From: Eledone cirrhosa
Taxonomy: Eukaryota
Assembly (NCBI GenBank): GCA_964016885.1
Contig: OZ024743.1
Coordinates: 308,326,001-308,390,000 of the forward strand
Length of the DNA stretch: 64,000 bases
Direction of reading: 5' to 3'
Shown here: piece by piece, positions 1,657-59,640 of the stretch
Layout: each line of letters begins with the position of its first letter
How positions within the stretch are numbered: position 1 is the stretch's first letter
The notes under the pieces: model-generated
The model's database searches: none
Seen by the model: the letters and a program-made list of their open reading frames with translations, nothing else
Told to the model about the DNA's origin: nothing
Program-made: the position numbers and the translations under genes

Positions 1657-1922
1657 AAATACCATTTATTCTGCGGCAGAGAGCTTCATCTTCCCAGAAT
1701 CGTAGTACTGGTCGTTATTATATGTGTGTGTTTCTGCGTATATATAGATATGTGGTGTATATACGCATTCACATATTTAGAGGTAATATCACGTGAACAC
1801 AATCACGTGACAAATCACATTATTCTTTCAAAAGGAAAAGTTTGGCGCCATTTTTCTCCAGGGAATAGCACGTCAACAAACGCAAGAGAAAAGAAGAAGC
1901 AAAAGATGAGAAAATGGTAAAT
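1657..1922. promoter_or_regulatory. Candidate, possibly bidirectional, host promoter / first exon
   Basis: TCACGTGA at 1789 and 1803; TTTGGCGCCATTTT (E2F/YY1-like) at 1841; CACGTCA at 1869; ATG|GTAAAT at 1914-1922 (+); ATG|GTATTT at 1665-1657 (-). Motif evidence only. Confidence 0.3.
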
Positions 1923-2335
1923 AATATCCGTTTCCATTTATTAATATATTGTATATATATGTATGTATGTATATAATGAGAATCTAAATTATGTTAATTT
2001 TTAAATCTAACCACCCCACTAAGATTAAAAATGCTATAGTTAGTAATATTGGAAAAAGAATATCAAACCTATCATCTAATAAAAATATCTTTGATGCTAA
2101 CGTCAATTACTATAATAATGCGCTTTCTAAAGCCGGTTATCCTGATAAAATCAAATACAGTAAAGAAACCAATGATAGAAAATCTTACAGTAAAATAATT
2201 AATTATGTTCATTCCAATAACATAAATAAAAGACCTAGATACAAAAATATAATCTGGTATAATGTTCCTTTCTCTATTTCTATTAATAATAATATTCCTA
2301 AATTATTCTTTAGTGCCTTAAATAAATGCTTCCCT

Positions 2336-5300
2336 CCCTCACATATCTATAGTAAAATATTTAACAAACATATAATAACATTTTTCTATTCCACCTCCTC
2401 CAACATCTCCAACATTATCTCTAAACACAACAATAAAATATTAAATACTAAATCACATCCTTCCAACACTGAATGTTATAATAATAGCAGTAGTACTCCC
2501 GGCGTCATTGTTAACTCTAGGCTAGTTTCTGCAAACTCAAATACGACGTCAAACGTAACTTCGTCAAATGTTCTTAATACCAATCTAAATCGGGAAACTA
2601 TTATTCCTATCGTAAATAACTTCTCCAATCCAATTCCTCCTATAGATAATACTAGGTCACTTGTTAATAACTCTGTTAATTTCTCTAATCGCAATTGTAA
2701 TTGCCCTGTTAAAAATAAATGTCCTCTCAACAACCATTGTCTTGAAAAAAACTTAGTTGTTGAAGAATATATGAAACTTAGATGTTGAAGAATATATGAA
2801 AGAACTGCTTGATTCTTCTGACTCCCAAGTACAGATATTTCTAAATCATTTATTAAAGAATGGAAGACACCTGTGATAAAACAACTTGTCACCTCTAAAC
2901 AGTCGACCAAACAAACCAGTGCCAGTAATTCTAATAATCGACAAAAAACTCAGACACTACCATCTAAACTTTCCAACAATACAGAACCTTCCAAAAATAT
3001 ACCCATCTTTCTACCTTATTTCAATATTATTTATTATACATTATATAATACTAGTTACTCAGTCTATATCATTCCTATTTATCACTTTCCTTTCTTCCTC
3101 TTTTCTTTTAATTTTTTAACCTCTAATCTGTACTTTTTCTTCTGTACTGCCCCCCCCCCCCCCCCCTCACATATCTATAGTAAAATATTCAACAAACATA
3201 TAATAACATTTTTCTATTCCACCTCCTCCAACATCTCCAACATTATCTCTAAACACAACAATAAAATATTAAATACTAAATCTCATCCTTCCAACACTGA
3301 ATGTTATAATAATAGCAGTAGTACTCCCGGCGTCATTGTTAACTCTAGGCTAGTTTCTGCAAACTCAAATACGACGTCAAACGTAACTTCGTCAAATGTT
3401 CTTAATACCAATCTAAATCAGGAAACTATTATTCCTATCGTAAATAACTTCTCCAATCCAATTCCTCCTATAGATAATACTAGGTCACTTGTTAATAACT
3501 CTGTTAATTTCTCTAATCGCAATTGTAATTGCCCTGTTAAAAATAAATGTCCTCTCAACAACCATTGTCTTGAAAAAAACTTAGTTGTTGAAGAATATAT
3601 GAAACTTAGATGTTGAAGAATATATGAAAGAACTGCTTGATTCTTCTGACTCCCAAGTACAGATATTTCTAAATCATTTATTAAAGAATGGAAGACACCT
3701 GTGATAAAACAACTTGTCACCTCTAAACAGTCGACCAAACAAACCAGTGCCAGTAATTCTAATAATCGACAAAAAACTCAGACACTACCATCTAAACTTT
3801 CCAACAATACAGAACCTTCCAAAAATATACCCATCTTTCTACCTTATTTCAATATTATTTATTATACATTATATAATACTAGTTACTCAGTCTATATCAT
3901 TCCTATTTATCACTTTCCTTTCTTCCTCTTTTCTTTTAATTTTTTAACCTCTAATCTGTACTTTTTCTTCTGTACTGCCCCCCCCCCCCCTCACATATCT
4001 ATAGTAAAATATTCAACAAACATACAATAACATTTTTCTATTCCACCTCCTCCAACATCTCCAACATTATCTCTAAACACAACAATAAAATATTAAATAC
4101 TAAATCACATCCTTCCAACACTGAATGTTATAATAATAGCAGTAGTACTCCCGGCGCCATTGTTAACTCTAGGCTAGTTTCTGCAAACTCAAATACGACG
4201 TCAAACGTAACTTCGTCAAATGTTCTTAATACCAATCTAAATCAGGAAACTATTATTCCTATCGTAAATAACTTCTCCAATCCAATTCCTCCTATAGATA
4301 ATACTAGGTCACTTGTTAATAACTCTGTTAATTTCTCTAATCGCAATTGTAATTGCCCTGTTAAAAATAAATGTCCTCTCAACAACCATTGTCTTGAAAA
4401 AAACTTAGTTGTTGAAGAATATATGAAACTTAGATGTTGAAGAATATATGAAAGAACTGCTTGATTCTTCTGACTCCCAAGTACAGATATTTCTAAATCA
4501 TTTATTAAAGAATGGAAGACACCTGTGATAAAACAACTTGTCACCTCTAAACAGTCGACCAAACAAACCAGTGCCAGTAATTCTAATAATCGACAAAAAA
4601 CTCAGACACTACCATCTAAACTTTCCAACAATACAGAACCTTCCAAAAATATACCCATCTTTCTACCTTATTTCAATATTATTTATTATACATTATATAA
4701 TACTAGTTACTCAGTCTATATCATTCCTATTTATCACTTTCCTTTCTTCCTCTTTTCTTTTAATTTTTTAACCTCTAATCTGTACTTTTTCTTCTGTACT
4801 GCCCCCCCCCCCCCTCACATATCTATAGTAAAATATTCAACAAACATACAATAACATTTTTCTATTCCACCTCCTCCAACATCTCCAACATTATCTCTAA
4901 ACACAACAATAAAATATTAAATACTAAATCACATCCTTCCAACACTGAATGTTATAATAATAGCAGTAGTACTCCCGGCGTCATTGTTAACTCTAGGCTA
5001 GTTTCTGCAAACTCAAATACGACGTCAAACGTAACTTCGTCAAATGTTCTTAATACCAATCTAAATCAGGAAACTATTATTCCTATCGTAAATAACTTCT
5101 CCAATCCAATTCCTCCTATAGATAATACTAGGTCACTTGTTAATAACTCTGTTAATTTCTCTAATCGCAATTGTAATTGCCCTGTTAAAAATAAATGTCC
5201 TCTCAACAACCATTGTCTTGAAAAAAACTTAGTTGTTGAAGAATATATGAAACTTAGATGTTGAAGAATATATGAAAGAACTGCTTGATTCTTCTGACTC

Positions 5301-6445
5301 CCAAGTACAGATATTTCTAAATCATTTACTTAAAGAATGGAAGACACCTGTGATAAAACAACTTGTCAACTCTAAACAGTCGACCAAACAAACCAGTGCC
5401 AGTAATTCTAATAATCGACAAAAAACTCAGACACTACCATCTAAACTTTCCAACAATACAGAACCTTCCAAAAATATACCCATCTTTCTACCTTATTTCA
5501 ATATTATTTATTATACATTATATAATACTAGTTACTCAGTCTATATCATTCCTATTTATCACTTTCCTTTCTTCCTCTTTTCTTTTAATTTTTTAACCTC
5601 TAATCTGTACTTTTTCTTCTGTACTGCCCCCCCCCCCCCCTCACATATCTATAGTAAAATATTCAACAAACATACAATAACATTTTTCTATTCCACCTCC
5701 TCCAACATCTCCAACATTATCTCTAAACACAACAATAAAATATTAAATACTAAATCACATCCTTCCAACACTGAATGTTATAATAATAGCAGTAGTACTC
5801 CCGGCGTCATTGTTAACTCTAGGCTAGTTTCTGCAAACTCAAATACGACGTCAAACGTAACTTCGTCAAATGTTCTTAATACCAATCTAAATCAGGAAAC
5901 TATTATTCCTATCGTAAATAACTTCTCCAATCCAATTCCTCCTATAGATAATACTAGGTCACTTGTTAATAACTCTGTTAATTTCTCTAATCGCAATTGT
6001 AATTGCCCTGTTAAAAATAAATGTCCTCTCAACAACCATTGTCTTGAAAAAAACTTAGTTGTTGAAGAATATATGAAACTTAGATGTTGAAGAATATATG
6101 AAAGAACTGCTTGATTCTTCTGACTCCCAAGTACAGATATTTCTAAATCATTTACTTAAAGAATGGAAGACACCTGTGATAAAACAACTTGTCAACTCTA
6201 AACAGTCGACCAAACAAACCAGTGCCAGTAATTCTAATAATCGACAAAAAACTCAGACACTACCATCTAAACTTTCCAACAATACAGAACCTTCCAAAAA
6301 TATACCCGTCTTTCTACCTTATTTCAATATTATTTATTATACATTATATAATACTAGTTACTCATTCTATATCATTCCTATTTATCACTTTCCTTTCTTC
6401 CTCTTTTCTTTTAATTTCTAACCTCTAATCTGTACTTTTTCTTCC
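2336..6445 (+). repeat. Tandem array of 5 x ~826-bp units (PLE linker + captured fragment + PLE 3' UTR + poly-C junction)
   Basis: ctcacatatctatagtaaaat recurs at ~2338, 3166, 3990, 4814 and 5640; matching ORFs recur at 824-828 bp spacing. Confidence 0.97.
5251..5469 (+). pseudogene. Captured host-gene-like fragment resembling the TRIP4/ASC-1 N-terminal helical region (one per repeat unit; frame intact in units 4 and 5)
   Basis: DVEEYMKELLDSSDSQVQIFLNHLLKEWK aligns ungapped with my recollection of human TRIP4 EIREYVTDLLQGNEGKKGQFIEELITKWQ; segment absent from the related PLE at 57-59 kb. Not database-verified. Confidence 0.55.
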
Positions 6446-7128
6446 TAACTACTTCTCAATTTTTATTATTACTCACCACAACAGATCCACTCTTCCATCT
6501 TTCTTCATATCATTGGCCATAAAAATTATTATTACCTTTTAAATACTTTATATACCTTTAAAAATCCTTCGTAAACATAAACATTTTTTTGACGTTAGGT
6601 TATTCCTCCTCAGTTCATTATATTTTTCTCCCTTTCATGCTCGTCTGACTTTTACATATCACACATCACAATACATAAAAACAAACTTAAACCCTAACTA
6701 ATCTCCTTTATTACATTATATTATTACCATTAGAAAATACTTCATAAATATATATATTTTGATGTTAGAGTCTTCTCTTCCTTAAACACTATTTTCTTCT
6801 TTGCTTTCTGCGCTCATTTGTAAATGAACAATAATAATTCTTAGGGGTATAAAAACCCTAGAAAATGCTATTTTCATCATTTCTAAAAATAGCAAAACAA
6901 TTGATGCTTTGAATAGGGCCAAATAGAAGTCGTTAGACATGCCCAACCAACCGTGATGCCTAAACCAATCAGCTTCAGTAATCCAGTGAAACTACACACC
7001 GATTGGTCGAAATACAGTTTGCAAAATTTAGCATTTTGTAGCCGCTTTTCACTGTATATAAGGCACAAAATTTACCCATCTCATTAAAGTTTTTACAAAA
7101 TTGTAAACTTGACTGTCACCACAGAATA

Positions 7129-7167
7129 TGAACCTGAAGATTGCGAAAGCATGAAATTATTTGTTCA
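7129..7167 (+). ncRNA. Minimal type I hammerhead ribozyme
   Basis: tgaac-CTGAAGA-t.tgc(gaaa)gca.t-GAAA-ttat-TT-gttca; lies downstream of CCAAT (6965) and TATATAA (7055), upstream of AATAAA (7239). Confidence 0.7.
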
Positions 7168-8239
7168 ATTAACACTTAACACTTAATATTCTACCATACT
7201 ATTTCATTCTAATACCATTATAATTTTAAAGGATTGTAAATAAAACGAGTAAATCAGACAAAGTTGGAATTCCTTTTATTAATATAATCTTCTATACACA
7301 ATCATACACACCCGTGTATATTTATTTATATATATATGTATATATATATATAGCTTTTAAGCTATTTTGTAGTATCTCTGTTCAGGAACACACCACTTAT
7401 ATTAAATTTATCTCCCTGGAGCTTTGTAAAAGTCTGAGAGATTGGCTACATATATGTTTTATATATATTTTTTTTTTTGTTTAGATGGAAGACAAAACAA
7501 CGAAGATGAATACAAAGATGAAGAAGAGAAAGATAAAGATGAAGAACCTCACTGCACCACACCACATAAAAACATACAACACTACACCACACTACTCCAC
7601 ACCACATAACACCACAACACAACACACCACTCCTCACTACTCCACTCCACATAAAAACACACCTCACTAAATCACACCACATAAAAACACACCACATAAC
7701 ACCACAACACAACACACCACACTACATCACACCACACTACATCACACCACATAAAAACACACCACACAACTCCACTCCACATAAAAACACACCACACTAC
7801 TCCATACCACATAACACCCAACATTTTTTCCTCATCTTTTTTTCATGTGTTATCAACTAATCTGATCTCCAAGATGTTTGTTATTGACTCTCTCTTCATG
7901 GAAAACTTAGGTGGATGCACTTCTCTCATTTAACCCCAGAGTTTTCTCTAAGATTTTTCGTATGTTATCAACGAATATGACCTCCAAACCAGTTGGAAAT
8001 GATTAGTTGTTCTAGAAAAAAGGAGGGGTAAAGCGGGTGGAAAAACCATTGTCGTTTTGTAGATATATACCCTAATGATTTTCTTCGGTCTCCTTTTGAG
8101 TGCTATCAACTAATCTGACCTTTTAGTTGCTCTGAATCAATTTTTTTTTCATGGGATTTGGAAACTAAAACTAAATTAAACATAAATTAAATCTAGCCCC
8201 AACCCTAAACTCTAAATCTAAACCAAACCAATCTAAATA

Positions 8240-8482
8240 TAAACATTACCCCAACCCTTAAACTAAACCCTAAACTATACCCCAACCATAAAACTAAACC
8301 CTAAACATTACCCCAAACCTAAAACTAAACCCTAAACTTTACCCCAAACCTAAAACTAAACCCTAAACTTTACCCCAGCCCTAAAACTAAATCCTAAACT
8401 TTACCCCAACCCTAAAACTAGACCCTAAACATTACCCCAACCCTAAAACTAAACGCTAAACTTTACCCCAACCCTAAACCCA
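8240..8482. repeat. ~30-bp minisatellite containing AACCCTAAA (telomere-like)
   Basis: About 8 copies of aaactaaaccctaaactttaccccaaacct-like units. Confidence 0.85.
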
Positions 8483-10489: not shown

Positions 10490-13400
10490 ATCAACTTTTT
10501 TCCTGGAAAGTAGAAAACCTAACTTTAAGCTAAAACCGAACTTTAAAAATAACACTTACCCTAACACTTGCACTCACACATGCTCTAACAGTGAACTTAG
10601 CGCTAACATGAAAACTAACACAAACACTAACACTAAAACTGACACTAACACTAACCTGAACACCAGCACTAAAACTAACACTACCCTAAACACTAATACA
10701 AACACTACCAATGACCTGAACACTTACACTAAAACTAACATTAGCACAAACATTAGCCTGAACACTAGCACTAAAACTAACATAAACACTAACACTAACC
10801 TGAGCACTAACACTAAAAGTAACACAAACACTAATCTGAAAACTGATACTAACAAGAAAACTAAGCTAACATTAACTTCAATACTAAAACAAACACTAAC
10901 GCTAACAGAGATACTAACACAAATATTAACACAAAAACAAACACTAACACAATCTCTAACACTAACTTCAACACTAACACTAAAACTAACATTAACTTGA
11001 ACACTAACTCTAACCTGAACACTAACATAAACACTAATGCTAACATTAACACAAAAACAAAGACTAACGCTAACACAATCACTAACACTAATGGAAACAT
11101 CAAACACTAATGCTAACAGAGATACTAACACAAATATTAACACAAATACTAACACTAACACAATCTCTAACACTAACCTGAACACTTACACTAACACTAA
11201 CAGAGATACTAACACAAATATTAACACAAAAACAAACACAATCTCTAACACTAAAACTAACATTAACACAAAAACAAAGACTAACTCTAACACAATCACT
11301 AACACTAATGGAAACATCAATCACTAATGCTAACAGAGATACTAACACAAATATTAACACAAAAACAAACACTAACACAATCTCTAACACTAACTTCAAC
11401 ACTAACACTAAAACTAACATTAACTTGAACACTAACTCTAACCTGAACACTAACATAAACACTAATGCTAACATTAACACAAAAACAAAGACTAACGCTA
11501 ACACAATCACTAACACTAATGGAAACATCAAACACTAATGCTAACAGAGATACTAACACAAATATTAACACAAATACTAACACTAACACAATCTCTAACA
11601 CTAACCTGAACACTTACACTAACAGAGATACTAACACAAATATTAACACAAAAACAAACACAATCTCTAACACTAAAACTAACATTAACACAAAAACAAA
11701 GACTAACTCTAACACAATCACTAACACTAATGGAAACATCAATCACTAATGCTAACAGAGATACTAACACAAATATTAACACAAAAACAAACACTAACAC
11801 AATCTCTAACACTAACCTTAACACTAAAACTAACATTAACACTTACACTAAAACTAACATTAACCTAAGCACTAGCACTAAAACTAACACTAAAAAAAAA
11901 CACTAACACTACCCTGAACACTAACACTAAAACTAACACGAAAACTGATACTATCCAGAAAACTAAGCTAACATTAACCTCAACACTAAAACAAACACTA
12001 ACATTAACACAAAAACAAATACTAACACTAACACAATCTCTAACACTAACATGAACACTTACACTAAAACTAACAGTAACAGAGATATTAACACAAAAAC
12101 AAACACAATCTCTAACACTAAAACTAACATTAACACAAAAACAAAGACTAACGCTAACACAATCACTAACACTAATGGAAACATCAATCACTAATGCTAA
12201 CAGAGATACTAACACAAATATTAACACAAAAACAAATACTAACGCAATCTCTAACACTAACCTTAACACTAATGCTAACATTAACACTAACACTAACCCG
12301 AACACTTACACTAAAACTAACATTAACCTAAACACTAACACTAAAACTAACACTACCATAAACAGTAACACAAACACTAACACTGATCTGAGCACTAACA
12401 CTAAAACTAAAAAAAACACTAAAACTAACACGAAAACTGATACTAACCAGAAAACTAAGCTAACATTAACCTCAACACTAAAACAAACACTTACATTAAC
12501 AGAAAAACAAAGACTAGCACTAACACTAATGGAAACACTAACACAAACATTAACACAAAATAAAACACTAACACTAATGGAAAAATAACACTAACACTAA
12601 AACTAACACTACCGTAAACACTAACCTGAACACTAACACTAAAACTGACATTAACACGAACATTAACCTGAACACTACCACTAAAACTAACACTACCATA
12701 AACCACTAACCTGAGCACTAACACTAAAAGTAACACGAGCCCTAATCTGAAAACTAACACTAACCAGAAAACTAAGTCAACATTAACCTGAACACTAACA
12801 CAAACACTAACACTAACCTGAACACTAACACTAACAAAAATGCTAACACTAATACAAAATCAAACACGAACACTAATGGAAACACTAACACTAATGCCAA
12901 CGCTGACACTGACGAAGATGGCTCTGCTGGCACAAACGCTAGCGCAAATGTTGACACAATCGCTTACGCTGACACAAACACTAACGTGAATACTGATGCA
13001 GGTGCAAAGGCGAATGCTGACAAAAACTCTGATGCACACGCTGATGTAAATGCTACACAGACTCTAACGCTGACGTGGACACTGACATAAATGCTCACGC
13101 TGATGCAAACACTAAAGCAAATGCAGACACTAATGCAAACACAGACGCAAATGTTGATGCAGATGTTAAAGCAAACGCAAACGATGACAGCGATGCTAAT
13201 GTGAACCTTAACGCAGACGTAAACATTGACGTAGAAGCTAAAGGAAACAGTGATGCAAACACTAATGAAAATGCTGACGCAGACACTAACATACGTTAAC
13301 ACAGATGCTAACGTAAACACTTACGCAGATGCTAATATAAACACTGACGCAGACGCTAACATAAACGCTGACACAGATGCTAACACACGTTGACACAGAC

Positions 13401-15182
13401 GCTAACATAAACGATGACGCAGACGCAAATGTAAACGCTGACTCTGATGTAGATGTAAATACAGACGCTGACGTGGAAGCTACCACAAACGCTGACACAG
13501 ACACTAATGTAAGCGCTGACGTAGAAGCTAATGTAGATACTGACGTACGTAGAAGCTAACGTAAACGATGACGTAGATGTTAACGTAGACGCTGATGTAG
13601 AAGCTAACGTAGATGCTGACGTAGAAGCTAACAAAACGCTGACGTAGTTGTTACGTAGAAGCAGGCGTAGAAGTTAGCGTTTACCCTTACCGCCGAAGCT
13701 GATCTCCAAAACGCAATTGCTGATGCGGATTGCTGAAGCCAAAGCCAAGCTAACGCTGATGCAAATGTTGAGGCAGTTTTGCCGGCGCTGACGTGTATGC
13801 TGACGCTAAGGCTAACGCTAACGCTGACGCAAATGCTGAAGTTAACGCTTACATGGGATATGCAGACACTGCATTGATGCGGACGCCACAGGAAAGGTTA
13901 ATGGAAACGCCAATGCTAACGGAAAACGCTGACGTACACGTTAAGGAAACGCTGACGTAGAAGCTAACGTAAACGCTGACGTAGAAGCTAACATAAACAC
14001 TGACACAGACGCTAACGTAAACACTGACGTTAATTGAAACGCTGACACTGATGTAGATGTAAATACTGACGCTGACACAGACGTGGTCGGAAACGCTGAC
14101 GTAGATGCTAACGGAAATGCTGACGTAGAAGCTAACGTAAACACTGACATAGAAGCTAACGTAAACACTGACATAGAAGCTAACGTAAACACTGACATAG
14201 AAGCTAACGGAAACACTGACATAGAAGCTAACGGAAACACTGACATAGAAGCTAACGTAAACACTGACATAGAAGCTAACGGAAACACTGACATAGAAGC
14301 TAACGGAAACACTGACATAGAAGCTAACGGAAACACTGACATAGAAGCTAACGTAAACACTGACATAGAAGCTAACGTAAACACTGACATAGAAGCTAAC
14401 GGAAACACTGACATAGAAGCTAACGTAAACACTGACATAGAAGCTAACGTAAACACTGACATAGAAGCTAACGTAAACACTGACATAGAAGCTAACGGAA
14501 ATGCTGACGTAGAAGCTAACGGAAACACTGACACAGACGCTAACGGAAATGCTGACAAAGACGTTAAAGGAAACACTGTTGCAAACGCTAATGCTACTGT
14601 GAATGCTGATGCAGATGCTGACGCAAATGCTAACCCCTACACAAATGCAAACACTGATGCTAACACTGACTCAAACACTAATGCAAATGCTGACGTGCAC
14701 GCTGATGCAAACGCTGACACCGAGGGAAAGGCTGACACTGACACAAGTGCTGACGCGGACGCTAATGATAATGCTGACTCAGAAGCTGACGTAGACGTAG
14801 GCACTGAAACAAACACTAATGCTAACACTAATGTTGACTCAGACGCTAAGGGAAATGCTGACACAATCACTATCACCAATGCAGACGCTGACGCAAATGC
14901 TGACACTTACGCAAACACTGAGGCTAATCCAAACACTAACGCAGATGCTAACACCAGTCTACATAGACACTAACACAAAAGCTTACATAGACGCTTATGC
15001 AAATGCTAACGCTGATGCAGACAGTAATGAAAACAGTAACTGTAAGAGTAACAGTTACAGTAACACTAACTGACAGTAATGCTAACAGTAACACCGTCAC
15101 TAACAATAAACTTACCATTAACAGTAAAACTTACCCTAACACTAACCCTAAATCTAACATTAATCCAGAGAAAAAAGTCATT
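10490..15182. repeat. 4.7-kb hexamer-phased degenerate tract, (ACTAAC)n grading into (GCTRAC)n
   Basis: Continuous 6-bp periodicity; internal ~428-bp duplication (ORFs at 11037 and 11465); bounded by IR atcaacttttttcctgg / ccagagaaaaaagtca. Confidence 0.9.
14131..14490 (+). repeat. 15 x 24-bp minisatellite gctaacgKaaacactgacatagaa
   Basis: Reads AN[V/G]NTDIE x15 within ORF 14083-14973. Confidence 0.95.
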
Positions 15183-15339: not shown

Positions 15340-18300
15340 CTTGGTAAATTTATAATAGGTTTCCATGTTATAACTACTCCAAACTAAACCATACCAAACC
15401 AAACCACACCATAACAAACTACACCATACTTCATCACACCATGCTATTGAACTCAGTTTGAAAAATGTTCTTCCTGCTTTTTTGTCTTTTTGTGTGTGTG
15501 TGCTTACCACCCAATCTGACATTAAAAGTGTTCGCAATTAACTATTTTTTGCACATATTATCAATGAAGACTTTGAAACCTGTTGAAAATGACTAGCTTT
15601 GTAGAAAAAAGAGGGCGGAAAGTGGGTGGAAATACCATTCACAAAGCTTGTCATTTTTGATTGCAGTGAAAGTCATATTTGTTGTTAATATGGTAATGGA
15701 GGCACATGGCTTAGTGGTTAGAGCATTGGCCTTGCAATCGAAAGGTTGTGAGTTCAATTCTCAGACCAGGTGGTGTGTTGTTTCCTTGAGCAAGACACTT
15801 TATTTCACATTGCTCCAGTTTACTCAGCTGTAGAAATGAGATGATAGGGACTGGCGTCCCTATCATTCCACTGCAAAGTGGTCGTGTAGGTGTCATGGCA
15901 AAGACCACCTAGCACTCACTGTAAATGAGGTTGGTCTTAGGAAGGGCATCCAGCTGTAGAAATCAAGCCAGAATCAGTTCCCGTCCCACCCTTGCAAGCA
16001 GGGAAAAGTGGACGTAAAATGGTGATGGTAAAAGCATAGTCGGCTGTGAGCATGTTGGAGGTTGGAAAACCATACCACATTAAACTACATCAAACTACAC
16101 CATACCAAACTACACCATACTACATCACACCATGCTATTAATCTCAGTGAGAACATTTTTCTTCCTGTTTTTTTTCTTTTCTGTGTGTGTGTGTGTGCTT
16201 ACCACCCAATCAGATATCAAAGGTGCTCTCAAATGACTATTTTTTTACACATTATCAATGTATATAACATGGAAACCTATCATTTGCAATAGGTTCCCAT
16301 GTCATAACTACAACAATCCAAACCAGACCACAACAAACAACACCATTCTACATCACACCATGCTTTTGATCCCAGTGTGGAAAATTTTCTTCCTGTTTTT
16401 TTTTTTTTTTTTTTTTTGTGTTCTTACCACCCAATCTGACATGGTGCTGCAATTGACTATTTTTCGCACATATTATCAATAATTATGACATGGAAAACTG
16501 TCGAAAATGACTAGCTTTGTAGAAAAAAGAGGGAGGATGTGGGTGGAAATACCATTTACAAAGCTAGTCATTTTTTATTGCAGCGGAAGTCATATTTTTT
16601 GTTAATATGCTAAAAGCATAGTCCACTGCGAGCATCTTGGAAGTTGATAAATGTGCTCCCAATTGACTATTTTTTTTCCACTTATCAATAATTATGACAT
16701 GGAAACCTGTCGAAAATAACTATCTTTGTAGAAACTTCACCAAACCACACCATACTACATCACACCAAGATATTGATTTTGGTGTGACAAATTTTCATCT
16801 GGCATTTTTTTTTTTTTTTCCGTGCTTACCACCCAATGTGACATGAAAGATGCTTGCAAATTATTATTTTATGCACATATTATCAATGGTTATGACATGG
16901 AAACCTGATGAAAATGACTAGCTTTGTAGAAAAAAGAGGGAGGATGTGGGTGGAAATACCATTTACAAAGCTAGTCATTTTTTATATCAGCGGAAGTCAT
17001 ATTTTTGGTTAATATGCTAAAAGCATAGTCCACTGCGAGCATCTTGGAAGTTGATAACACATGCAAAAATGAAGGAAAAATTTTTTTTCTAACATAAATC
17101 AAAGTGGAAATTTAAATCCTCACTTATAAGAAAGCACACCACAGCACATTAATCTACCCCAATCCACACCATAAATTCACCATAACCATACTTCACTATA
17201 TGGTAAATTTATTACAGAACACCTACTCTTAACATTTACATCACACCATGGTATGGAGATCAATGTGACAAATTTGCTACCTGCTTCTTATTTTTTTTTG
17301 TGGTTACCACCTCAAACTAACATCATAGGTGCTTGCAAATGACTATTTTCCCACACATTATCAATGAATATGACATGGGAATCTATCGTTTACAATTGGT
17401 TTCCATTTCATAACTTCACCAAACCAAACCACACCATACCAAGTTACACCATACTACATCGCACCAAGCTATTGATCTTGGTGTGAAACATTTTCTTCCC
17501 GTTTCCTTTTTTTTTGTCTGTGTGCTTACCACCCAATCTGACATTAAAGGTGCTCCCAATTCACTATTTTTTTCCACTTATCAATAATCATGACATGGAA
17601 ACCTGTCGAAAATTACTATCTTTGTAGAAACTTCACCAAACCACACCATACTACATCACACCAAGATATTGATTTTGGTGTGACAAATTTTCATCTGGCA
17701 TATTTCTTTTTTTTTTTTTTCTTTTTCGTGCTTACCACCCAATTTGACATAAAAGGTGCTCGCAAATTACTATTTTATGCACATATTATCAATGGTTATG
17801 ACATGGAAACCTGATGAAAATGACTAGCTTTGTAGAAAAAAGAGGGAGGATGTGGGTGGAAATACCATTTACAAAGCTAGTCATTTTTTATTGCAGCGGA
17901 AGTCATATTTTTTGTTAATATGCTAAAAGCATAGTCCACTGCGAGCATCTTGGAAGTTGATAACACATGCAAAAATGAATGAAAAATTTTTTTTCTAACA
18001 TTAATCAAAGTGGAAATTTAAATCCTCACTTATAAGAAAGCACACCACAGCACATTAATCTACCCCAATCCACACCATAAATTCACCATAACCATACTTC
18101 ACTATATGGTAAATTTATTATGGAACACCTACTCTTAACATTTACATCACACCATGGTATGGAGATCAATGTGACAAATTTGCTACCTGCTTCTTATTTT
18201 TTTTTGTGGTTACCACCTCAAACTAACATCATAGGTGCTTGCAAATGACTATTTTCCCACGCATTATCAATGAATATGACATGGGAATCTATCGTTTACA

Positions 18301-21300
18301 ATTGGTTTCCATTTCATAACTTCACCACACCATACCAAGTTACACCATACTACATTGCACCAAGCTATTGATCTTGGTATGAAACATTTTCTTCCCGTTT
18401 TCTTTTTTTTTTGTCTGTGTGCTTACCACCCAATCTGACATTAAAGGTGTTGTAATTGACTATTTTTTTCCACTTATCAATAATTATGACATGGAAACCT
18501 GTCGAAAATTACTATCTTTGTAGAAACTTCACCAAACCACACCATACTACATCACACCAAGATATTGATTTTGGTGTGACAAATTTTCATCTGACAAATT
18601 TTTTTTTTTTTTTTTCTTTTTCGTGCTTACCACCCAATTTGACATAAAAGGTGCTCGCAAATTACTATTTTATGCACATATTATCAATGGTTATGACATG
18701 GAAACCTGATGAAAATGACTAGCTTTGTAGAAAAAAGAGGGAGGATGTGGGTGGAAATACCATTTACAAAGCTAGTCATTTTTTATTGCAGCGGAAGTCA
18801 TATTTTTTGTTAATATGCTAAAAGCATAGTCCACTGCGAGCATCTTGGAAGTTGATAACACATGCAAAAATGAAGGAAAAATTTTTTTTCTAACATAAAT
18901 CAAAGTGGAAATTTAAATCCTCACTTATAAGAAAGCACACCACAGCACATTAATCTACCCCCAATCCACACCATAAATTCACCATAACCATACTTCACTA
19001 TATGGTAAATTTATTACGGAACACCTACTCTTAACATTTACATCACACCATGGTATGGAGATCAATGTGACAAATTTGCTACCTGCTTCTTATTTTTTTT
19101 TTGTGGTTACCACCTCAAACTAACATCATAGGTGCTTGCAAATGACTATTTTCCCACACATTATCAATGAATATGACATGGGAATCTATCGTTTACAATT
19201 GGTTTCCATTTCATAACTTAACCAAACCAAACCAAATCACACCATACCAAGTTACACCATACTACATCGCACCAAGCTATTGATCTTGGTGTGAAACATT
19301 TTCTTCCCGTTTCCTTTATTTTTTTTTTTTTTGAGCTCACCACCCAATTTGACATAAAAGGTGCTCGCAAATTACTATTTTATGCACATATTATCAATGG
19401 TTATGACATGGAAACCTGATGAAAATGACTAGCTTTGTAGAAAAAAGAGGGAGGATGTGGGTGGAAATACCATTTACAAAGCTAGTCATTTTTTATTGTA
19501 GTGGAAGTCATATTTTTTGTTAATATGCTAAAAGCATAGTCCACTGCGAGCATCTTGGAAGTTGATAACACATGCAAAAATGAAGGAAAAATTTTTTTTC
19601 TAACATTAATCAAAGTGGAAATTTAAATCCTCACTTATAAGAAAGCACACCACAGCACATTAATCTACCCCAATCCACACCATAAATTCACCATAACCAT
19701 ACTTCACTATATGGTAAATTTATTACGGAACACCTACTCTTAACATTTACATCACACCATGGTATGGAGATCAATGTGACAAATTTGCTACCTGCTTCTT
19801 ATTTTTTTTTGTGGTTACCACCTCAAACTAACATCATAGGTGCTTGCAAATGACTTTTTTCCCACACATTATCAATGAATATGACATGGCAATCTATCGT
19901 TTACAATTGGTTTCCATTTCATAACTTCACCAAACCAAACCACACCATACCAAGTTACACCATACTACATCGCACCAAGCTATTGATCTTGGTGTGAAAC
20001 ATTTTCTTCCCGTTTCCTTTTTTTTGTCTGTGTGCTTACCACCCAATCTGACATTAAAGGTGTTGTAATTGACTATTTTTTTCCACTTATCAATAATTAT
20101 GACATGGAAACCTGTCGAAAATTACTATCTTTGTAGAAACTTCACCAAACCACACCATACTACATCACACCAAGATATTGATTTTGGTGTGACAAATTTT
20201 CATCTGACAAATTTTTTTTTTTTTTTTTCTTTTTCGTGCTTACCACCCAATTTGACATAAAAGGTGCTCGCAAATTACTATTTTATGCACATATTATCAA
20301 TGGTTATGACATGGAAACCTGATGAAAATGACTAGCTTTGTAGAAAAAAGAGGGAGGATGTGGGTGGAAATACCATTTACAAAGCTAGTCATTTTTTATT
20401 GCAGCGGAAGTCATATTTTTTGTTAATATGCTAAAAGCATAGTCCACTGCGAGCATCTTGGAAGTTGATAACACATGCAAAAATGAAGGAAAAATTTTTT
20501 TTCTAACATAAATCAAAGTGGAAATTTAAATCCTCACTTATAAGAAAGCACACCACAGCACATTAATCTACCCCCAATCCACACCATAAATTCACCATAA
20601 CCATACTTCACTATATGGTAAATTTATTACGGAACACCTACTCTTAACATTTACATCACACCATGGTATGGAGATCAATGTGACAAATTTGCTACCTGCT
20701 TCTTATTTTTTTTTTGTGGTTACCACCTCAAACTAACATCATAGGTGCTTGCAAATGACTATTTTCCCACACATTATCAATGAATATGACATGGGAATCT
20801 ATCGTTTACAATTGGTTTCCATTTCATAACTTAACCAAACCAAACCAAATCACACCATACCAAGTTACACCATACTACATCGCACCAAGCTATTGATCTT
20901 GGTGTGAAACATTTTCTTCCCGTTTCCTTTATTTTTTTTTTTTTTGAGCTCACCACCCAATTTGACATAAAAGGTGCTCGCAAATTACTATTTTATGCAC
21001 ATATTATCAATGGTTATGACATGGAAACCTGATGAAAATGACTAGCTTTGTAGAAAAAAGAGGGAGGATGTGGGTGGAAATACCATTTACAAAGCTAGTC
21101 ATTTTTTATTGTAGTGGAAGTCATATTTTTTGTTAATATGCTAAAAGCATAGTCCACTGCGAGCATCTTGGAAGTTGATAACACATGCAAAAATGAAGGA
21201 AAAATTTTTTTTCTAACATTAATCAAAGTGGAAATTTAAATCCTCACTTATAAGAAAGCACACCACAGCACATTAATCTACCCCAATCCACACCATAAAT

Positions 21301-24300
21301 TCACCATAACCATACTTCACTATATGGTAAATTTATTACGGAACACCTACTCTTAACATTTACATCACACCATGGTATGGAGATCAATGTGACAAATTTG
21401 CTACCTGCTTCTTATTTTTTTTTGTGGTTACCACCTCAAACTAACATCATAGGTGCTTGCAAATGACTTTTTTCCCACACATTATCAATGAATATGACAT
21501 GGCAATCTATCGTTTACAATTGGTTTCCATTTCATAACTTCACCAAACCAAACCACACCATACCAAGTTACACCATACTACATCGCACCAAGCTATTGAT
21601 CTTGGTGTGAAACATTTTCTTCCCGTTTCCTTTTTTTTGTCTGTGTGCTTACCACCCAATCTGACATTAAAGGTGGTCCCAATTCACTATTTTTTTCCAC
21701 TTATCAATAATCATGACATGGAAACCTGTCGAAAATTACTATCTTTGTAGAAACTTCACCAAACCACACCATACTACATCACACCAAGATATTGATTTTG
21801 GTGTGACACATTTTCATCTGGCATATTTCTTTTTTTTTTTTTTCTTTTTCGTGCTTACCACCCAATTTGACATAAAAGGTGCTCGCAAATTACTATTTTA
21901 TGCACATATTATCAATGGTTATGACATGGAAACCTGATGAAAATGACTAGCTTTGTAGAAAAAAGAGGGAGGATGTGGGTGGAAATACCATTTACAAAGC
22001 TAGTCATTTTTTATTGCAGCGGAAGTCATATTTTTTGTTAATATGCTAAAAGCATAGTCCACTGCGAGCATCTTGGAAGTTGATAACACATGCAAAAATG
22101 AATGAAAAATTTTTTTTCTAACATTAATCAAAGTGGAAATTTAAATCCTCACTTATAAGAAAGCACACCACAGCACATTAATCTACCCCAATCCACACCA
22201 TAAATTCACAATAACCATACTTCACTATATGGTAAATTTATTATGGAATACCTACTCTTAACATTTACATCACACCATGGTATGGAGATCAATGTGACAA
22301 ATTTGCTACCTGCTTCTTATTTTTTTTTGTGGTTACCACCTCAAACTAACATCATAGGTGCTTGCAAATGACTATTTTCCCACACATTATCAATGAATAT
22401 GACATGGGAATCTATCGTTTACAATTGGTTTCCATTTCATAACTTCACCACACCATACCAAGTTACACCATACTACATTGCACCAAGCTATTGATCTTGG
22501 TGTGAAACATTTTCTTCCGTTTCCTTTTTTTTTTGTCTGTGTGCTTACCACCCAATCTGACATTAAAGGTGTTGTAATTGACTATTTTTTTTCCACTTAT
22601 CAATAATTATGACATGGAAACCTGTCGATAATTACTATCTTTGTAGAAACTTCACCAAACGACACCATACTACATCACACCAAGATATTGATTTTGGTGT
22701 GACAAATTTTCATCTGGCATATTTTTTTTTTTTTTTTATTCTTTTTCGTGCTTACCACCCAATTTGACATAAAAGGTGCTCGCAAATTACTATTTTATGC
22801 ACATATTATCAATGGTTATGACATGGAAACCTGATGAAAATGACTAGCTTTGTAGAAAAAAGAGGGAGGATGTGGGTGGAAATACCATTTACAAAGCTAG
22901 TCATTTTTTATTGCAGCGGAAGTCATATTTTTTGTTAATATGCTAAAAGCATAGTCCACTGCGAGCATCTTGGAAGTTGATAACACATGCAAAAATGAAG
23001 GAAAAATTTTTTTTCTAACATAAATCAAAGTGGAAATTTAAATCCTCACTTATAAGAAAGCACACCACAGCACATTAATCTACCCCAATCCACACCATAA
23101 ATTCACCATAACCATACTTCACTATATGGTAAATTTATTACAGAACACCTACTTTAACATTTACATCACACCATGGTATGGAGATCAATGTGACAAATTT
23201 GCTACCTGCTTCTTATTTTTTTTTGTGGTTACCACCTCAAACTAACATCATAGGTGCTTGCAAATGACTATTTTCCCACACATTATCAATGAATATGACA
23301 TGGGAATCTATCGTTTACAATTGGTTTCCATTTCATAACTTCACCAAACCAAACCACACCATACCAAGTTACACCATACTACATCGCACCAAGCTATTGA
23401 TCTTGGTGTGAAACATTTTCTTCCCGTTTCCTTTTTTTTTGTCTGTGTGCTTACCACCCAATCTGACATTAAAGGTGCTCCCAATTCACTATTTTTTTCC
23501 ACTTATCAATAATCATGACATGGAAACCTGTCGAAAATTACTATCTTTGTAGAAACTTCACCAAACCACACCATACTACATCACACCAAGATATTGATTT
23601 TGGTGTGACAAATTTTCATCTGGCATATTTCTTTTTTTTTTTTTTCTTTTTCGTGCTTACCACCCAATTTGACATAAAAGGTGCTCGCAAATTACTATTT
23701 TATGCACATATTATCAATGGTTATGACATGGAAACCTGATGAAAATGACTAGCTTTGTAGAAAAAAGAGGGAGGATGTGGGTGGAAATACCATTTACAAA
23801 GCTAGTCATTTTTTATTGCAGCGGAAGTCATATTTTTTGTTAATATGCTAAAAGCATAGTCCACTGCGAGCATCTTGGAAGTTGATAACACATGCAAAAA
23901 TGAATGAAAAATTTTTTTTCTAACATTAATCAAAGTGGAAATTTAAATCCTCACTTATAAGAAAGCACACCACAGCACATTAATCTACCCCAATCCACAC
24001 AATAAATTCACAATAACCATACTTCACTATATGGTAAATTTATTATGGAATACCTACTCTTAACATTTACATCACACCATGGTATGGAGATCAATGTGAC
24101 AAATTTGCTACCTGCTTCTTATTTTTTTTTGTGGTTACCATCTCAAACTAACATCATAGGTGCTTGCAAATGACTATTTTCCCACACATTATCAATGAAT
24201 ATGACATGGGAATCTATCGTTTACAATTGGTTTCCATTTCATAACTTCACCACACCATACCAAGTTACACCATACTACATTGCACCAAGCTATTGATCTT

Positions 24301-27429: not shown

Positions 27430-27524
27430 TATTTTAATAAATATTTGCTCTACGGTTCTTATATAATTGATATATATTTATCCCTATCGAGCCCTCTTTG
27501 GATTTTAGTCTTCATATGTATTAT

Positions 27525-27596
<72 letters not shown>

Positions 27597-27598
<2 letters not shown>

Positions 27599-32782: not shown

Positions 32783-33375
32783 TCTTTTAGCTGTTCCAGC
32801 CATCCGACTGAGACCATGATTGGGCACTGCCCTTGTTGCTACACATTCTATCTCCAGCCTGTGTTGGCTGGCCATTGATGTAAGAGGGAGTTCGTTGCTG
32901 CTGCCCTTAGGTTACCTTCGTACCGTGATGTGGGCTCATCCGGGATCCTGGATAACAGGGTGTTGAGAAGTTTCTTGAAAATATCCACGGCCACACCATG
33001 TAGATCTCTCAAATCCCTCGGCAGTTTGTTGAAGAGTTGAGGGCCTTTGAACCCCAGTCTATTGCAATATCTGCTTCTTGTTCTAGATGCGGAAGACGGG
33101 ACCTTTGTCACCACACAGTGACGTCCTGTTCGGGGGTTGGTCCCGCTTTCAATACCAAAGTTTGGCGCTAGTCCCTCCAGGATTTTCCATATGTATATCA
33201 CTGCGTATCTCTCCCGTCTTCGTTCCAAGGAGTAGAGTTTCAGTTCTTTTAGCCTCTCCCAGTAGCTCATCTCCTTCATTGTGCAATCCTCTTGGTGTAG
33301 CTTCGTTGGATTGTCTCAAGTTCCATGGTTAATTTGATACTATGGGGTGACCACAGCTGGGAGCAATAGTCCAGG
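32783..33375 (-). mobile_element. CR1-clade LINE 3' fragment
   Basis: ORF 32848-33279 SYWERLKELKLYSLERRRERY..GPQLFNKLP. Confidence 0.9.
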
Positions 33376-56671: not shown

Positions 56672-57083
56672 ATTATTCTGTGACACTAGAGTCCTTGCCA
56701 TTCCTTTACTTTTCCAGGGGTTTTTTTCTCTTTTTTTCTTTATATTTTCCTATTCTACATTCCATTCTTCTCAATCTAAATATTTTTTTCCTTTTTCTAA
56801 TTAACTATATTTACATGATATATTCCATAAATAAAATCAAAGAAAGAATTGAGGATTGGTTGTAAATAGTTGACAGATAACAATTTGGGAGAAACTGAAG
56901 CTAAGGGGAGGCACAATACCTGCAAACAAAACATACAGAAAATAGCTAATAATACATTGTTTTGTTTTTTTAAATTAGAATTCCTTTGGGTTTACTTTCA
57001 ACAAAAGATATATTTACAAAATATAGAAAAATAAAACATGCCAAAAAAAAAAAGCCGATACCTCTAACAACTTCGACATCACA

Positions 57084-58511
57084 ATGGGAGCATCCGATTC
57101 ATCCCAATTGACTGATTTAATTGGTATCTTTATTTTGAACTCTTTGAGTCGGAAAATTCCTCAACTTCGCGGTGGAATTTATCGTGACGATGGACTCTTT
57201 ACTATCTTAAATTGCAATATAGTTAACCTTAATATTATTAAGAACAATATACGTAATCTCTTTAACCAACATAACCTAAAAATTGAATTTGATAACAGTA
57301 TCAAACTAGCTAATTTCTTGGATGTATCTCTTAATCTTGACACTGGCCTATATTACCCTTACCATAAAAACAATGAGAACCTAAATTATGTTAACTTTAA
57401 ATCTAACCATCCTACTAATATCAAGAATGCTATAGTTAGTAATATTGGAAAAAGAATATCTAACCTATCTTCTAATAAAAACATCTTTGATGCTAACGCC
57501 AATTACTATAATAACGCACTTTCTAAAGCCGGCTATCCTGATAAAATCAAATATAGTAAAGAAACAAATTCTAAAAGAACTTACAGTAGAATAATTAATC
57601 ATGATCATTCCAATAACTTTAATAAAAGACCTAGATACAAAAACATAATCTGGTATAATGCTCCTTTCTCCATCTCTATTAATAACAATATTCCTAAATT
57701 ATTCTTTAGTGCCTTAAATAAATGCTTCCCTCCCTCACATATCTATAGTAAAATATTTAACAAACACACCATAAAATTTTCTTATTCTACATCCTCCAAT
57801 ATTTCCAACATTATCTCTAAACACAACAATAAAATACTAAATACTAAATCTCTTCCTTCCAACACTGAATGTCATAATAATAGTAATAGTACTCCCGACG
57901 TCATTGTAAACCCTAGGCTAATTTCTGCAAACCCAAATACAACGTCAAACACAACTTCGCTAAATGTTCATAATCCAACTCTAAATCAAGAAACTATTAT
58001 TCCTATCGCAAACAACTTCTCCAATCCAATTCCTTCTATAGATAACACTAGGTCACTCATTAATAATCTCTCTAATTGCAATTGCAATTGCCCTATTAAA
58101 AATAAATGTCCTCTCAACAACCATTGTCTTGATAAAAACTTAATTTATGAATGTAAAGTTATAACTAACACCAATTCCTTCACCTATTTTGGCTCCACTT
58201 CCACCTCTTTTAAAGCTCGTCTCTATAATCATCATTCATCTTTTAAATACAAACTTAAAATAACCAACACGGCTCTCTCAGAACTCATATGGTCCTTGAA
58301 AGACAAAAACATTAAATATACCATCTTTTGGAAGAAGGTTTCTTCTGCGTCTTCACACTTGAACAGTTCTCTATCTAAAATCTGCAATCTCTGCCTAAAT
58401 GAAAAATTTACCATTATCTCTAATCTAGATTCTATAATAAATAGACGCACTGACTTGTTTTCTATCTGCTTGCATAAATTCCATAAAACATTTCACAAAG
58501 TATACAGCTAA
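57084..58511 (+). CDS. PLE reverse transcriptase (C-terminal half) plus GIY-YIG endonuclease, uninterrupted for 475 aa
   Basis: (FDIT)MGASDS, IYRDDGL, NFLDVSLNL, SNHP, CNC..CPL..C, NLIYEC..TYFGST..FKARLYNH, CNLCLNEK, CLH. Confidence 0.93.
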   Translation: MGASDSSQLTDLIGIFILNSLSRKIPQLRGGIYRDDGLFTILNCNIVNLNIIKNNIRNLFNQHNLKIEFDNSIKLANFLDVSLNLDTGLYYPYHKNNENLNYVNFKSNHPTNIKNAIVSNIGKRISNLSSNKNIFDANANYYNNALSKAGYPDKIKYSKETNSKRTYSRIINHDHSNNFNKRPRYKNIIWYNAPFSISINNNIPKLFFSALNKCFPPSHIYSKIFNKHTIKFSYSTSSNISNIISKHNNKILNTKSLPSNTECHNNSNSTPDVIVNPRLISANPNTTSNTTSLNVHNPTLNQETIIPIANNFSNPIPSIDNTRSLINNLSNCNCNCPIKNKCPLNNHCLDKNLIYECKVITNTNSFTYFGSTSTSFKARLYNHHSSFKYKLKITNTALSELIWSLKDKNIKYTIFWKKVSSASSHLNSSLSKICNLCLNEKFTIISNLDSIINRRTDLFSICLHKFHKTFHKVYS

Positions 58512-59525
58512 TATTCAATTCTTTATCAATTTAGAATCTTTTTCTCAAAGGCACATATACATACACCTCTTTTAAAATATACCCATCTTCCTACCTTATT
58601 TCAAAGGGTATTATACACTATAATACTTGTTTACTCATTACCCTTACTCTATATCACCTTGTAAAATCCTTCGTAAACATATACATTTGTTTTGACGCCA
58701 GACTATTCATCCTTAATTCATTATTTTTTTCTCCCTATCATCTAACTCATTCTCAATACATATTAACATTTTCTTTTTCTTCGCACATATTATCAATTCC
58801 TTCAATATACAAACCTTAACTTCACATTATTTTTCTCAAATCCTTCAATATACAAACCTTAACTTTACATTTTTTCTCTTCGTTAATTTTCAAATTTCCA
58901 TAATACTTGTAGACTCTTTCTACACCACCCATATTTATCACTTCCTTTTCCTCTCCTCTAATATCTAACCCCTAATCTGTACCTTTTCTCACTCTTGCCT
59001 AACATAGAATCAATTATTACATAATACAACACATTCTTACTCTATATCACCTTATAAAAATCCTTCGTAAACATATACATTTTTTTTTTTGACTTTAGAA
59101 TATTCATCTGCAATTCATTATTCTCTTCTCTCTATCATCAAACTCATTATTCTCAATACATATTAACTCCCTCTCCTTCTTCGCACATATTTTTCCCTTC
59201 GTTAATTTTCAAATTCTTTTAATTTATACATTATCTTCCAACGGTTTTCAACCTCTCTATGTAAAACAATATATCTTTCTCAGTTATAAAAACTATCTCT
59301 CTCTCTCTCTCTATCACCCATCTCTCCTCCTATCTCATCCTTCCTCATTATATTCCTCCCTCTCCACCTTCACTCTCATCTCCTCCTCTTTTTTCATCCT
59401 TTCCACCCCCCCCTCTAAATAAAATATTTTTCCCAATATCACACATCAATCTAAAACTACTTCTCATATGTTGATTTAAAACTGCACTATCCACAAGTGT
59501 TTTTTAGCCTTCATATCATGTCCTG

Positions 59526-59592
59526 TTTTATCTGATGAAAACACAAATATTATTGCATGATGATGTTTGTTTTTGAAATGCGCATAATAAAA
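59526..59592 (+). ncRNA. Minimal type I hammerhead ribozyme with palindromic stem III
   Basis: ttttat-CTGATGA-(acaaatatta..tgatgtttgt stem II)-GAAA-tgcgca-TA-ataaaa. Confidence 0.85.
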
Positions 59593-59640
59593 TACATGGA
59601 ACTCCTTTAACCATCTTTTGTTCTTATATATTATATATAT

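Follow-up and report, generated by a model that had tools for sequence, protein, structure and literature searches.

A Penelope-like element (PLE) near the start of a 64,000-nucleotide stretch of the Eledone cirrhosa genome (GenBank assembly GCA_964016885.1, contig OZ024743.1, positions 308,326,001 to 308,390,000 of the forward strand; hereafter the window, numbered from its first base) has lost its endonuclease and carries in its place a piece of the host gene TRIP4, also called ASC-1. The segment that holds this replacement is repeated five times in tandem. A second, related PLE copy farther along the window provides the reference against which the chimera is read. These features and the sequences around them are as follows.

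1941..1976, no strand: TA-rich microsatellite at the 5' junction, the likely insertion target (from the sequence; counterpart TA tract at 7317-7352)
1975..2755, + strand: 5'-truncated body of a Hydra-clade PLE, with the thumb region of the reverse transcriptase (RT), an asparagine-rich (N-rich) linker and a CxCx5C motif at 2696 (89% identity to 57372-58151; motif scan)
2332..6444, + strand: five-unit tandem array of PLE linker, TRIP4 fragment and part of the 3' untranslated region (UTR) (self-comparison)
2749..2801, + strand: 25-bp tandem duplication across the PLE/TRIP4 junction (further copies at 3577, 4401, 5225 and 6051)
2781..3004, + strand: TRIP4 fragment of unit 1, Octopus bimaculoides residues 28-100, with a 1-base deletion (tblastn)
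2994..3142, + strand: PLE 3' UTR-like segment of unit 1 (11 bases at its start are shared with the tail of the TRIP4 match)
3143..3166, + strand: unit junction filler, 7 bases followed by a C run (sequence comparison)
3609..3832, + strand: TRIP4 fragment of unit 2, with a 1-base deletion (tblastn)
4433..4656, + strand: TRIP4 fragment of unit 3, with a 1-base deletion (tblastn)
5257..5481, + strand: TRIP4 fragment of unit 4, with an intact frame that spans the latter half of TRI4_N and the linker (tblastn, profile and protein searches)
6083..6307, + strand: TRIP4 fragment of unit 5, frame intact (tblastn)
6297..6638, + strand: PLE 3' UTR beyond the unit boundary, in unit 5 only (75-85% matches to the reference at 58574-58639, 58900-58989, 58645-58741 and 59038-59138)
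7129..7167, + strand: hammerhead-like motif, possibly the decayed ribozyme of the array copy's pseudo-long terminal repeat (pLTR) (pattern scan)
57027..58511, + strand: open reading frame (ORF) of the reference Hydra-clade PLE, open and 5'-truncated (YRDD 57180, CxCx5C 58083, GIY-equivalent 58140, YIG-equivalent 58185, CxxC 58383, CxH 58467)
59524..59594, + strand: 3'-terminal type I hammerhead-like motif of the reference PLE, with a palindromic loop and a TA tract beyond (pattern scan)

Anatomy of the replacement and of the array

When the window is compared with itself, the array copy matches the reference (57372-58151, 89% identity) from 1975 to about 2755-2764. The homology ends at the word AAACTTA (2749-2755, reference 58136-58142), a point that coincides with the first residue of the GIY-equivalent motif, LIY at 58140 in the reference. 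The next 238 bases (2756-2993), 25 of which belong to a tandem duplication at the junction, occupy the place of 431 reference bases (58143-58573) comprising the endonuclease core and 62 bases of UTR. Homology to the 3' UTR returns at 2994, equivalent to reference 58574, with 81% identity over 69 columns. The initial annotation, made from the sequence alone, had the PLE breaking off just before the GIY motif at about 2755, carrying some 240 bp of unrelated sequence and rejoining the 3' UTR at about 2993, and all three statements are borne out to within a few bases. Its starting point of 2749 is too far downstream, as the array begins at 2332 and the element at 1975. The relative that it described as intact (57084-58511) has an open frame but is truncated at its 5' end, and at 11% divergence it stands for a sister subfamily and not for the parent.

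The five units recur with periods of 828, 824, 824 and 826 bases and are 99% identical, any two differing at 3-9 of 805 columns, with 12 variable columns overall. Units 1-3 have a 1-base deletion in common, and only units 4 and 5 retain the TRIP4 frame. Because all five units carry the same two junctions and the same 25-bp duplication, these must have been in place before the amplification, and the proposal that a captured fragment was subsequently amplified five-fold in tandem therefore holds.

Several features of the array indicate how it grew. The 5' extension is found in unit 1 only and the further 3' UTR in unit 5 only. The four unit boundaries (3143, 3971, 4795 and 5620) have one 7-base filler in common, which repeats nearby upstream sequence, and their C runs are 17, 13, 13 and 14 bases long. 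Sequence variants are common mostly to neighboring units, and neither a pattern scan nor Rfam finds a hammerhead motif within 2332-6444. These extensions, the common filler, the neighbor-shared variants and the lack of a hammerhead in the units indicate that amplification probably took place at the DNA level, and the presence of other tandem arrays in the neighborhood points the same way. We infer that an internal segment was duplicated once and that unequal exchange then gave rise to the five units.

Two other ways of making such an array were considered and ruled out. Non-LTR retrozymes built from PLE termini (bioRxiv 10.64898/2026.07.22.740005) are likewise PLE-derived tandem arrays with units below 1 kb, but those described carry a hammerhead in every unit, whereas the units here have none, which excludes a rolling-circle origin, and derive from ORF and UTR sequence instead of the pLTR. 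In the usual partial tandem arrangement of PLEs, as described in PMC8557442, a truncated copy that serves as pLTR stands ahead of a longer one. Here the first unit has the longest 5' extension and the units end in the middle of the UTR.

The captured fragment and its carrier

Translation of 5251-5469 yields the 73-residue peptide that the initial annotation had quoted, and protein and profile searches with it identify the insert as TRIP4, the gene named there. An index-free search of 1.84 billion representative proteins returned exactly one match (expectation value, E, 1.1e-21), named activating signal cointegrator 1 isoform X2 of O. bimaculoides. This 610-residue protein contains TRI4_N, zf-C2HC5, TRIP4_3rd and ASCH, all four TRIP4 domains scoring above cut-off, and matches the solved human protein 8alz_A at E 1.3e-136. 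Insert and ortholog are identical at 50 of 68 residues, a low-complexity linker included. Among 212 candidates the only other match for the insert region is the Argonauta hians ortholog. The 73-residue translation scores E 1.7e-04 against the Pfam family TRI4_N, and its first 35 residues match this family alone at E 2.1e-05. Their 24.9 bits fall under the curated cut-off of 27.8 because the fragment lacks the domain's first half (it covers profile positions 33-61 of 61).

Residues 28-100 of the 610 in O. bimaculoides TRIP4 map to all five units by tblastn, and the same search finds no other part of TRIP4 within the window. TRIP4 serves as a helicase cofactor, with roles in transcription and in ribosome quality control, and its zinc finger is described as necessary for ASCC3 binding (PMC10076317). 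The captured piece lacks the zinc finger and is not a functional TRIP4 gene, which would also have an ASCH domain, a start codon and an intact frame.

Other identities for the insert did not hold. Read as a diverged PLE endonuclease or UTR, it is equaled or surpassed by 42 and 177 of 200 shuffles, respectively, and comparisons with the reference 5' ORF and with the DNA downstream of the array fare no better (137 and 195 of 200). Med26 and V-ATPase H, leads from the ESM Atlas, stayed below threshold. The other frames and the linker half of the insert have no meaningful Pfam match. Sequence searches of the PDB did not return TRIP4, their top matches being designed armadillo repeats with scores summed from weak repeats. 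A word-indexed search among longer proteins found nothing in 37 candidates, which is a false negative, the TRIP4 protein being present in that database.

The carrier is best characterized through the reference ORF. Out of 8000 candidates scored, 31 relatives match it at E up to 1e-20 with 28-41% identity. Its alignment begins only at about residue 297-309 of relatives 664-720 residues long, and the reference is therefore open but truncated rather than intact. The linker motif CxCx5C occurs in the reference (58083-58109), in the array copy (2696) and in 23 of the 31 database relatives. Between its GIY and YIG equivalents the reference has a single cysteine, and CxxC (58383) and CxH (58467) lie around a conserved E and N; the Pfam GIY-YIG profile gave no match on this endonuclease. 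The C-terminal region that carries the Hydra-type CxxC/CxH is absent from the array copy. RWK or RWR is found in 9 and DKT or DKN in 15 of the 31 relatives, which are of mixed lengths and do not all have these words at the homologous site, and the RWK/DKT region lies upstream of the truncation points of both window copies. From the linker and C-terminal motifs we assign the carrier to the Hydra clade. An assignment to the Neptune clade was dropped when the motif test showed neither a CX2-5CxxC finger nor a CCHH motif. The likeness to the C-terminal endonuclease-bearing PLEs of the Hydra clade as described by Craig et al. 2021 (PMC8557442) extends to CxCx5C, the missing cysteine pair of the GIY-YIG region and CxxC/CxH, and possibly to a hammerhead motif with a TA flank. 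The differences are an N-rich insert in the linker and, in the array copy, the loss of the endonuclease to a host fragment.

That N-rich insert, about 65 residues between the thumb and CxCx5C (57850-58060 in the reference and 2460-2680 in the array copy), is absent from 8 aligned relatives, and its ratio of nonsynonymous to synonymous substitution rates (dN/dS) is about 0.6. Over 252 aligned codons the array copy and the reference give a dN/dS of 0.26, falling to 0.14 in the first 150 codons. The PLE part of the array copy contains no stop in these 252 codons and a single 1-base indel near its 5' end. Taken together, the dN/dS, the one indel and the lack of stops suggest that the array copy died recently. 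The two copies are, as judged from their sequences, sister subfamilies.

Hammerhead patterns occur three times in the window as against once in 20 shuffles, among other positions at 59532 and 7134, with TA tracts beyond. Predicted folds are no better than those of shuffled sequences (z-scores of -0.4 for 59524-59594 and -0.6 for 7129-7167). In Rfam the first of these segments stays below the gathering threshold, the second has no match and nothing exceeds chance over the array. The segment 6640-7320 does not align with the 3' end of the reference above shuffles.

Three further observations concern PLEs. A third hammerhead-like motif at 38838-38889 (- strand) lies near TA tracts with no PLE ORF noticed beside it and is possibly a solo pLTR. 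A 3' fragment of a second, unrelated PLE at 45423-46166 (- strand) has a canonical GIY-YIG domain (Pfam E 6.9e-07) whose motifs enclose two cysteines. The annotation 'myb-like protein I' of an O. sinensis protein is an error, the protein being a thumb/linker piece of a PLE that has N-rich insertions of its own.

The two junctions differ in character. Homology there was computed on back-translated orthologs in place of host DNA, and the figures are best-case matches. At the 3' junction the TRIP4 frame, fixed by 13 identical upstream residues, runs without a gap into the first bases of the PLE UTR, and 10 of 12 positions match in the best case for both orthologs, a score reached by 0.33% of random pairs. 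At the 5' junction the residues ahead of the first captured one are NVH in O. bimaculoides and NIQ in Argonauta, not NL. The initial annotation had placed a microhomology, AACTTA, at this junction. Its second AACTTA belongs to the later 25-bp duplication, which includes the last PLE bases, and neither ortholog has NL there, so that the duplication probably created the apparent microhomology as a side effect, and the homology that has support sits at the 3' junction.

The duplication also bears on the reading frames. The first AAACTTA is followed by a codon in the PLE frame, and the second copy, offset by 25 bases, came later, which indicates that the original PLE-TRIP4 join was in frame. The duplication shifts the frame by one and the PLE frame now stops at 2788. 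Today neither an RT core nor an endonuclease nor a protein that fuses PLE and TRIP4 is encoded by this copy. Frames that stay open for 279 and 264 codons (5251-6090 and 2822-3616) pass from the TRIP4 fragment through the UTR into the PLE linker of the next unit. Such long frames occur at two of the four unit junctions, depend on the phase of the C run and are probably due to chance.

How far the fragment has diverged was assessed over 63 ungapped columns in three sequences, leaving out 5 gap-adjacent columns of the 68 and a repeat insert in Argonauta. Private changes number 9 in the insert, 1 in O. bimaculoides and 9 in Argonauta (insert versus O. bimaculoides, exact p 0.02). In the 37-column domain block they number 7, 1 and 1 (exact p 0.07). 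The nine changes of the insert are conservative and none could have arisen by a single transition. In neutral simulations free of stops, a mean BLOSUM score at least as high was reached in 61 of 11380, 87 of 10977 and 94 of 10628 runs, while the count of conservative changes alone was reached in 719, 827 and 936 of these runs (6-9%) and is not significant. This null is approximate, since it mutates the insert's own codons in place of ancestral ones, and the statistics were chosen after the data had been seen. Neutral decay as the source of the differences is thus disfavored by the mean BLOSUM score and by the transitions, not by the conservative count. On a simple reading, the capture would be recent and the donor a functional TRIP4 gene from an octopod lineage well separated from that of O. 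bimaculoides.

Origin of the chimera

We propose that the chimera arose by a double template switch during reverse transcription and was then amplified locally as DNA, leaving an inert relic, and we hold this account with about even confidence. Synthesis of complementary DNA (cDNA) would have started in the 3' end of the PLE at the TA microsatellite by target-primed reverse transcription. About 60 bases past the stop codon, at the measured near-match of some 10 bases, the growing cDNA would have shifted to TRIP4 RNA. After about 215-225 bases it would have returned to PLE RNA just after CxCx5C, with little or no homology, skipping 431 bases, joining in frame and ending 780 bases farther on, which would account for the 5' truncation. 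The 25-bp duplication over the 5' junction came next and destroyed the fusion frame. Last came the tandem duplication of an internal 825-bp segment, probably of the microhomology type, from which unequal exchange may have produced five units.

Several observations favor this account. The 3' junction has the measured homology, and TRIP4 is represented in the window by nothing but the captured piece. The capture is a replacement with loss of element sequence, both partners are in sense orientation, and the insert is purely coding and partial at both ends. Retrocopies formed by template switching in long terminal repeat (LTR) elements have the same anatomy (PMC5131818). We consider a switch onto a TRIP4 transcript plausible and prefer it. 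A capture close to the time of insertion is also easy to fit, given that the array copy is young as a dead element. With no RT core, endonuclease, upstream pLTR or fusion frame, this copy is probably inert.

Each part of this process has a counterpart in known systems. In the LTR-mediated retrocopies described by Tan et al. 2016 (PMC5131818), also attributed to a double template switch, a partial host coding sequence replaces part of an element ORF with element sequence on both sides. Their junctions show short similarity, which is seen here at one of two. They are defined by exon-exon junctions, whereas our case is recognized by its replacement anatomy, and the PLE that carries it has no virus-like particle. 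The tripartite long interspersed nuclear element (LINE) chimeras of Magnaporthe and mammals (Gogvadze et al. 2007, PMC2104539) likewise involve two template jumps in one round of reverse transcription; those described join three different RNAs and have a target-site duplication, while here the second jump would return to the element's own family and there is no firm duplication. For PLEs themselves, capture of host sequence between pLTRs is established (PMC3846280, PMC6431247). In the Adineta vaga case (Arkhipova et al. 2013, PMC3846280) host sequence also resides in a PLE, and long N-rich inserts between RT and endonuclease, of which the N-rich insert of our family is reminiscent, are attributed to template jumps. 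The capture described there is a whole intron-bearing gene between pLTRs, with no internal PLE sequence, in the Penelope/Poseidon clade, in contrast to a short fragment that replaces the endonuclease inside the ORF of a Hydra-clade element. PLEs can keep introns. Recently active Penelope-like insertions are described in O. vulgaris (PMC13282606).

Across animals, LTR elements are known to have internal ORF sequence replaced by partial host transcripts, with similarity at the junctions (PMC5131818). In searches of an open-access library, supplements such as Hydra family lists and octopus repeat libraries set aside, we found no report of an internal host-fragment replacement, or of TRIP4, in a PLE. 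The mechanism itself, capture by template switching, is known from LTR elements and LINEs. The replication cycle of PLEs is poorly understood, and the host captures that we found described for them consist of entire genes flanked by pLTRs, or of N-rich inserts whose source is unclear. This locus is a fossil with an identifiable piece of a conserved gene and measurable homology at one junction. It allows a test of whether the reverse transcriptases of PLEs switch to cellular mRNAs and return, as the enzymes of LTR elements and LINEs do. Such chimeras also bear on the contribution of PLEs to the shuffling of gene fragments in cephalopods, although what we have at present is one broken locus without sign of function.

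Several observations weigh against the double switch. At the 5' junction the best-case match to the PLE is 6 of 12 and 8 of 12 for the two orthologs, values that the null reaches in 46% and 8% of cases. The best candidate for a target-site duplication (16 of 17 bases, 1932-1948 versus 7270-7286, E 0.049) is AT-rich and lies 26 bases from the 5' junction. In the 3' UTR, similarity to the reference amounts to just 75-85% and the order is rearranged, which weakens the case for a single RNA as the source of both PLE parts. A single exon may contain the whole fragment: isoform X2 diverges from the Argonauta protein about 9 residues upstream of it, which suggests an exon boundary just outside. The nine private changes of the insert look selected rather than decayed, which we attribute to the host's own TRIP4, and inertness is read from the anatomy. 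An RNA donor is plausible, but filling of a gap at the DNA level would leave the same product.

Such gap filling is an unlikely but serious alternative. A break or stalled fork in an inserted, endonuclease-bearing PLE would have been repaired by copying a TRIP4 exon or cDNA, with deletion of 431 bases, and this would also cover left and right PLE parts derived from two different copies. Pack-TIRs in animals (PMC8277862) are described with the same internal-replacement anatomy and microhomology at one end only. Two further duplications of the microhomology type, of 25 bp and 825 bp, mark the locus as repair-prone, and the fragment may come from one exon. However, the process described in PMC8277862 favors nearby donors, and there is no TRIP4 beyond the insert in the window, although 64 kb of sequence tests this only weakly. 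An RNA donor predicts sense orientation and purely coding content, whereas a DNA donor just allows them, and a young dead copy leaves little time for later repair.

Less probable again, and in our view quite improbable, is a mobile non-autonomous lineage, moved in trans by way of its pLTRs, whose transcripts feed antisense PIWI-interacting RNAs (piRNAs) that reach TRIP4 mRNA, with amplification raising the dose. The precedent is found in Drosophilid telomeric retrotransposons (TART-nxf2, piwi, aub; PMC13534243), which carry host fragments of 140-235 bp amplified locally up to eight times; piRNAs fall on the donor gene, and the captured stretch evolves faster. Our fragment is similar in size (about 220 bases) and present in five copies, and has an excess of private changes over O. 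bimaculoides; hammerhead-like and CCAAT/TATA-like words lie downstream, and PLE terminal repeats are described as sufficient for mobilization in trans (PMC3846280). The Drosophilid captures, however, belong to active families with piRNA data, and 8 of the 9 described derive from genes of the piRNA pathway, whereas we see one broken locus in the 64-kb window with a helicase cofactor, not a known piRNA gene, as donor. The array copy lacks a pLTR upstream, and nowhere in the region does the unit occur in inverted orientation. A distant host lineage would also give the excess of changes, and Argonauta has nine private changes too. A hairpin source of double-stranded RNA was rejected, as none of the 23 inverted pairs in 1800-7500 involves the insert.

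A long shot along these lines would be that an octopod Hydra-clade lineage swapped its endonuclease for the in-frame TRIP4 piece, spread in trans, multiplied the piece and makes piRNAs that target TRIP4 and speed its evolution. If this were true, the conflict between TRIP4 and piRNAs would be a PLE counterpart of TART-nxf2 outside insects, with a cofactor of ribosome quality control as a new class of target.

We regard as very unlikely an endonuclease-minus Hydra subfamily in which the TRIP4 piece served as an in-frame C-terminal extension of the RT under purifying selection, this copy being a decayed descendant. The junction was in frame before the 25-bp duplication, the private changes are conservative with none a transition away and a mean BLOSUM score that few neutral runs match, and endonuclease loss within endonuclease-bearing clades is on record (PMC8557442). 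But one join in three falls in frame by chance, TRI4_N is represented by its second half only (profile 33-61 of 61), the frame continues into pyrimidine-rich UTR without a proper end, and selection in the host's own TRIP4 explains the changes more simply. That the chimera is real and its five-fold array an assembly artefact or merged haplotypes can be set aside as highly improbable: the units are 99% identical and tandem PLE structures are described as troubling assemblies (PMC8557442), but each unit has its own combination of variants over the 12 columns, in blocks shared with its neighbors, and 4.1 kb is short enough for long reads, if such reads were used.

Other repeats in the window

Several other tandem arrays lie in the first 27 kb of the window. 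One at 8165-8480 has a 31-bp unit of degenerate CCCTAA-like words and holds 10 of the window's 29 plus-strand CCCTAA. We take this array to be telomere-like, assuming that hexamer, which would hint at a subtelomeric or satellite-rich setting. A long array at 10500-15160 has a periodicity of 6, 12, 18 and 24 bases and open frames, the longest of 311 codons, with many N, T, D and A residues; this longest frame has no Pfam match, and the array may be a satellite or a repetitive coding exon. At 16600-26600, another array has units of about 0.9 kb with higher-order structure, and a 156-base probe from it finds 9 copies at 94-100% identity by BLAST.

Remnants of other retroelements are also present. 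Two LTR-retrotransposon pol remnants with the Ty3/gypsy domain order, about 66% alike, lie at 50490-53520 (- strand), with RT, RNase H and integrase, and at 54600-56213 (+ strand), where RT and a portion of RNase H remain. The latter remnant lies a short way ahead of the reference PLE. Pieces of ORFs from non-LTR retrotransposons occur at 27509-28630 (+ strand), the one with an RT match, at 60021-60695 (- strand) and at 32848-35354 (- strand). A partial tRNA match at 30211-30268 (- strand) within a dispersed repeat is likely the head of a short interspersed nuclear element.

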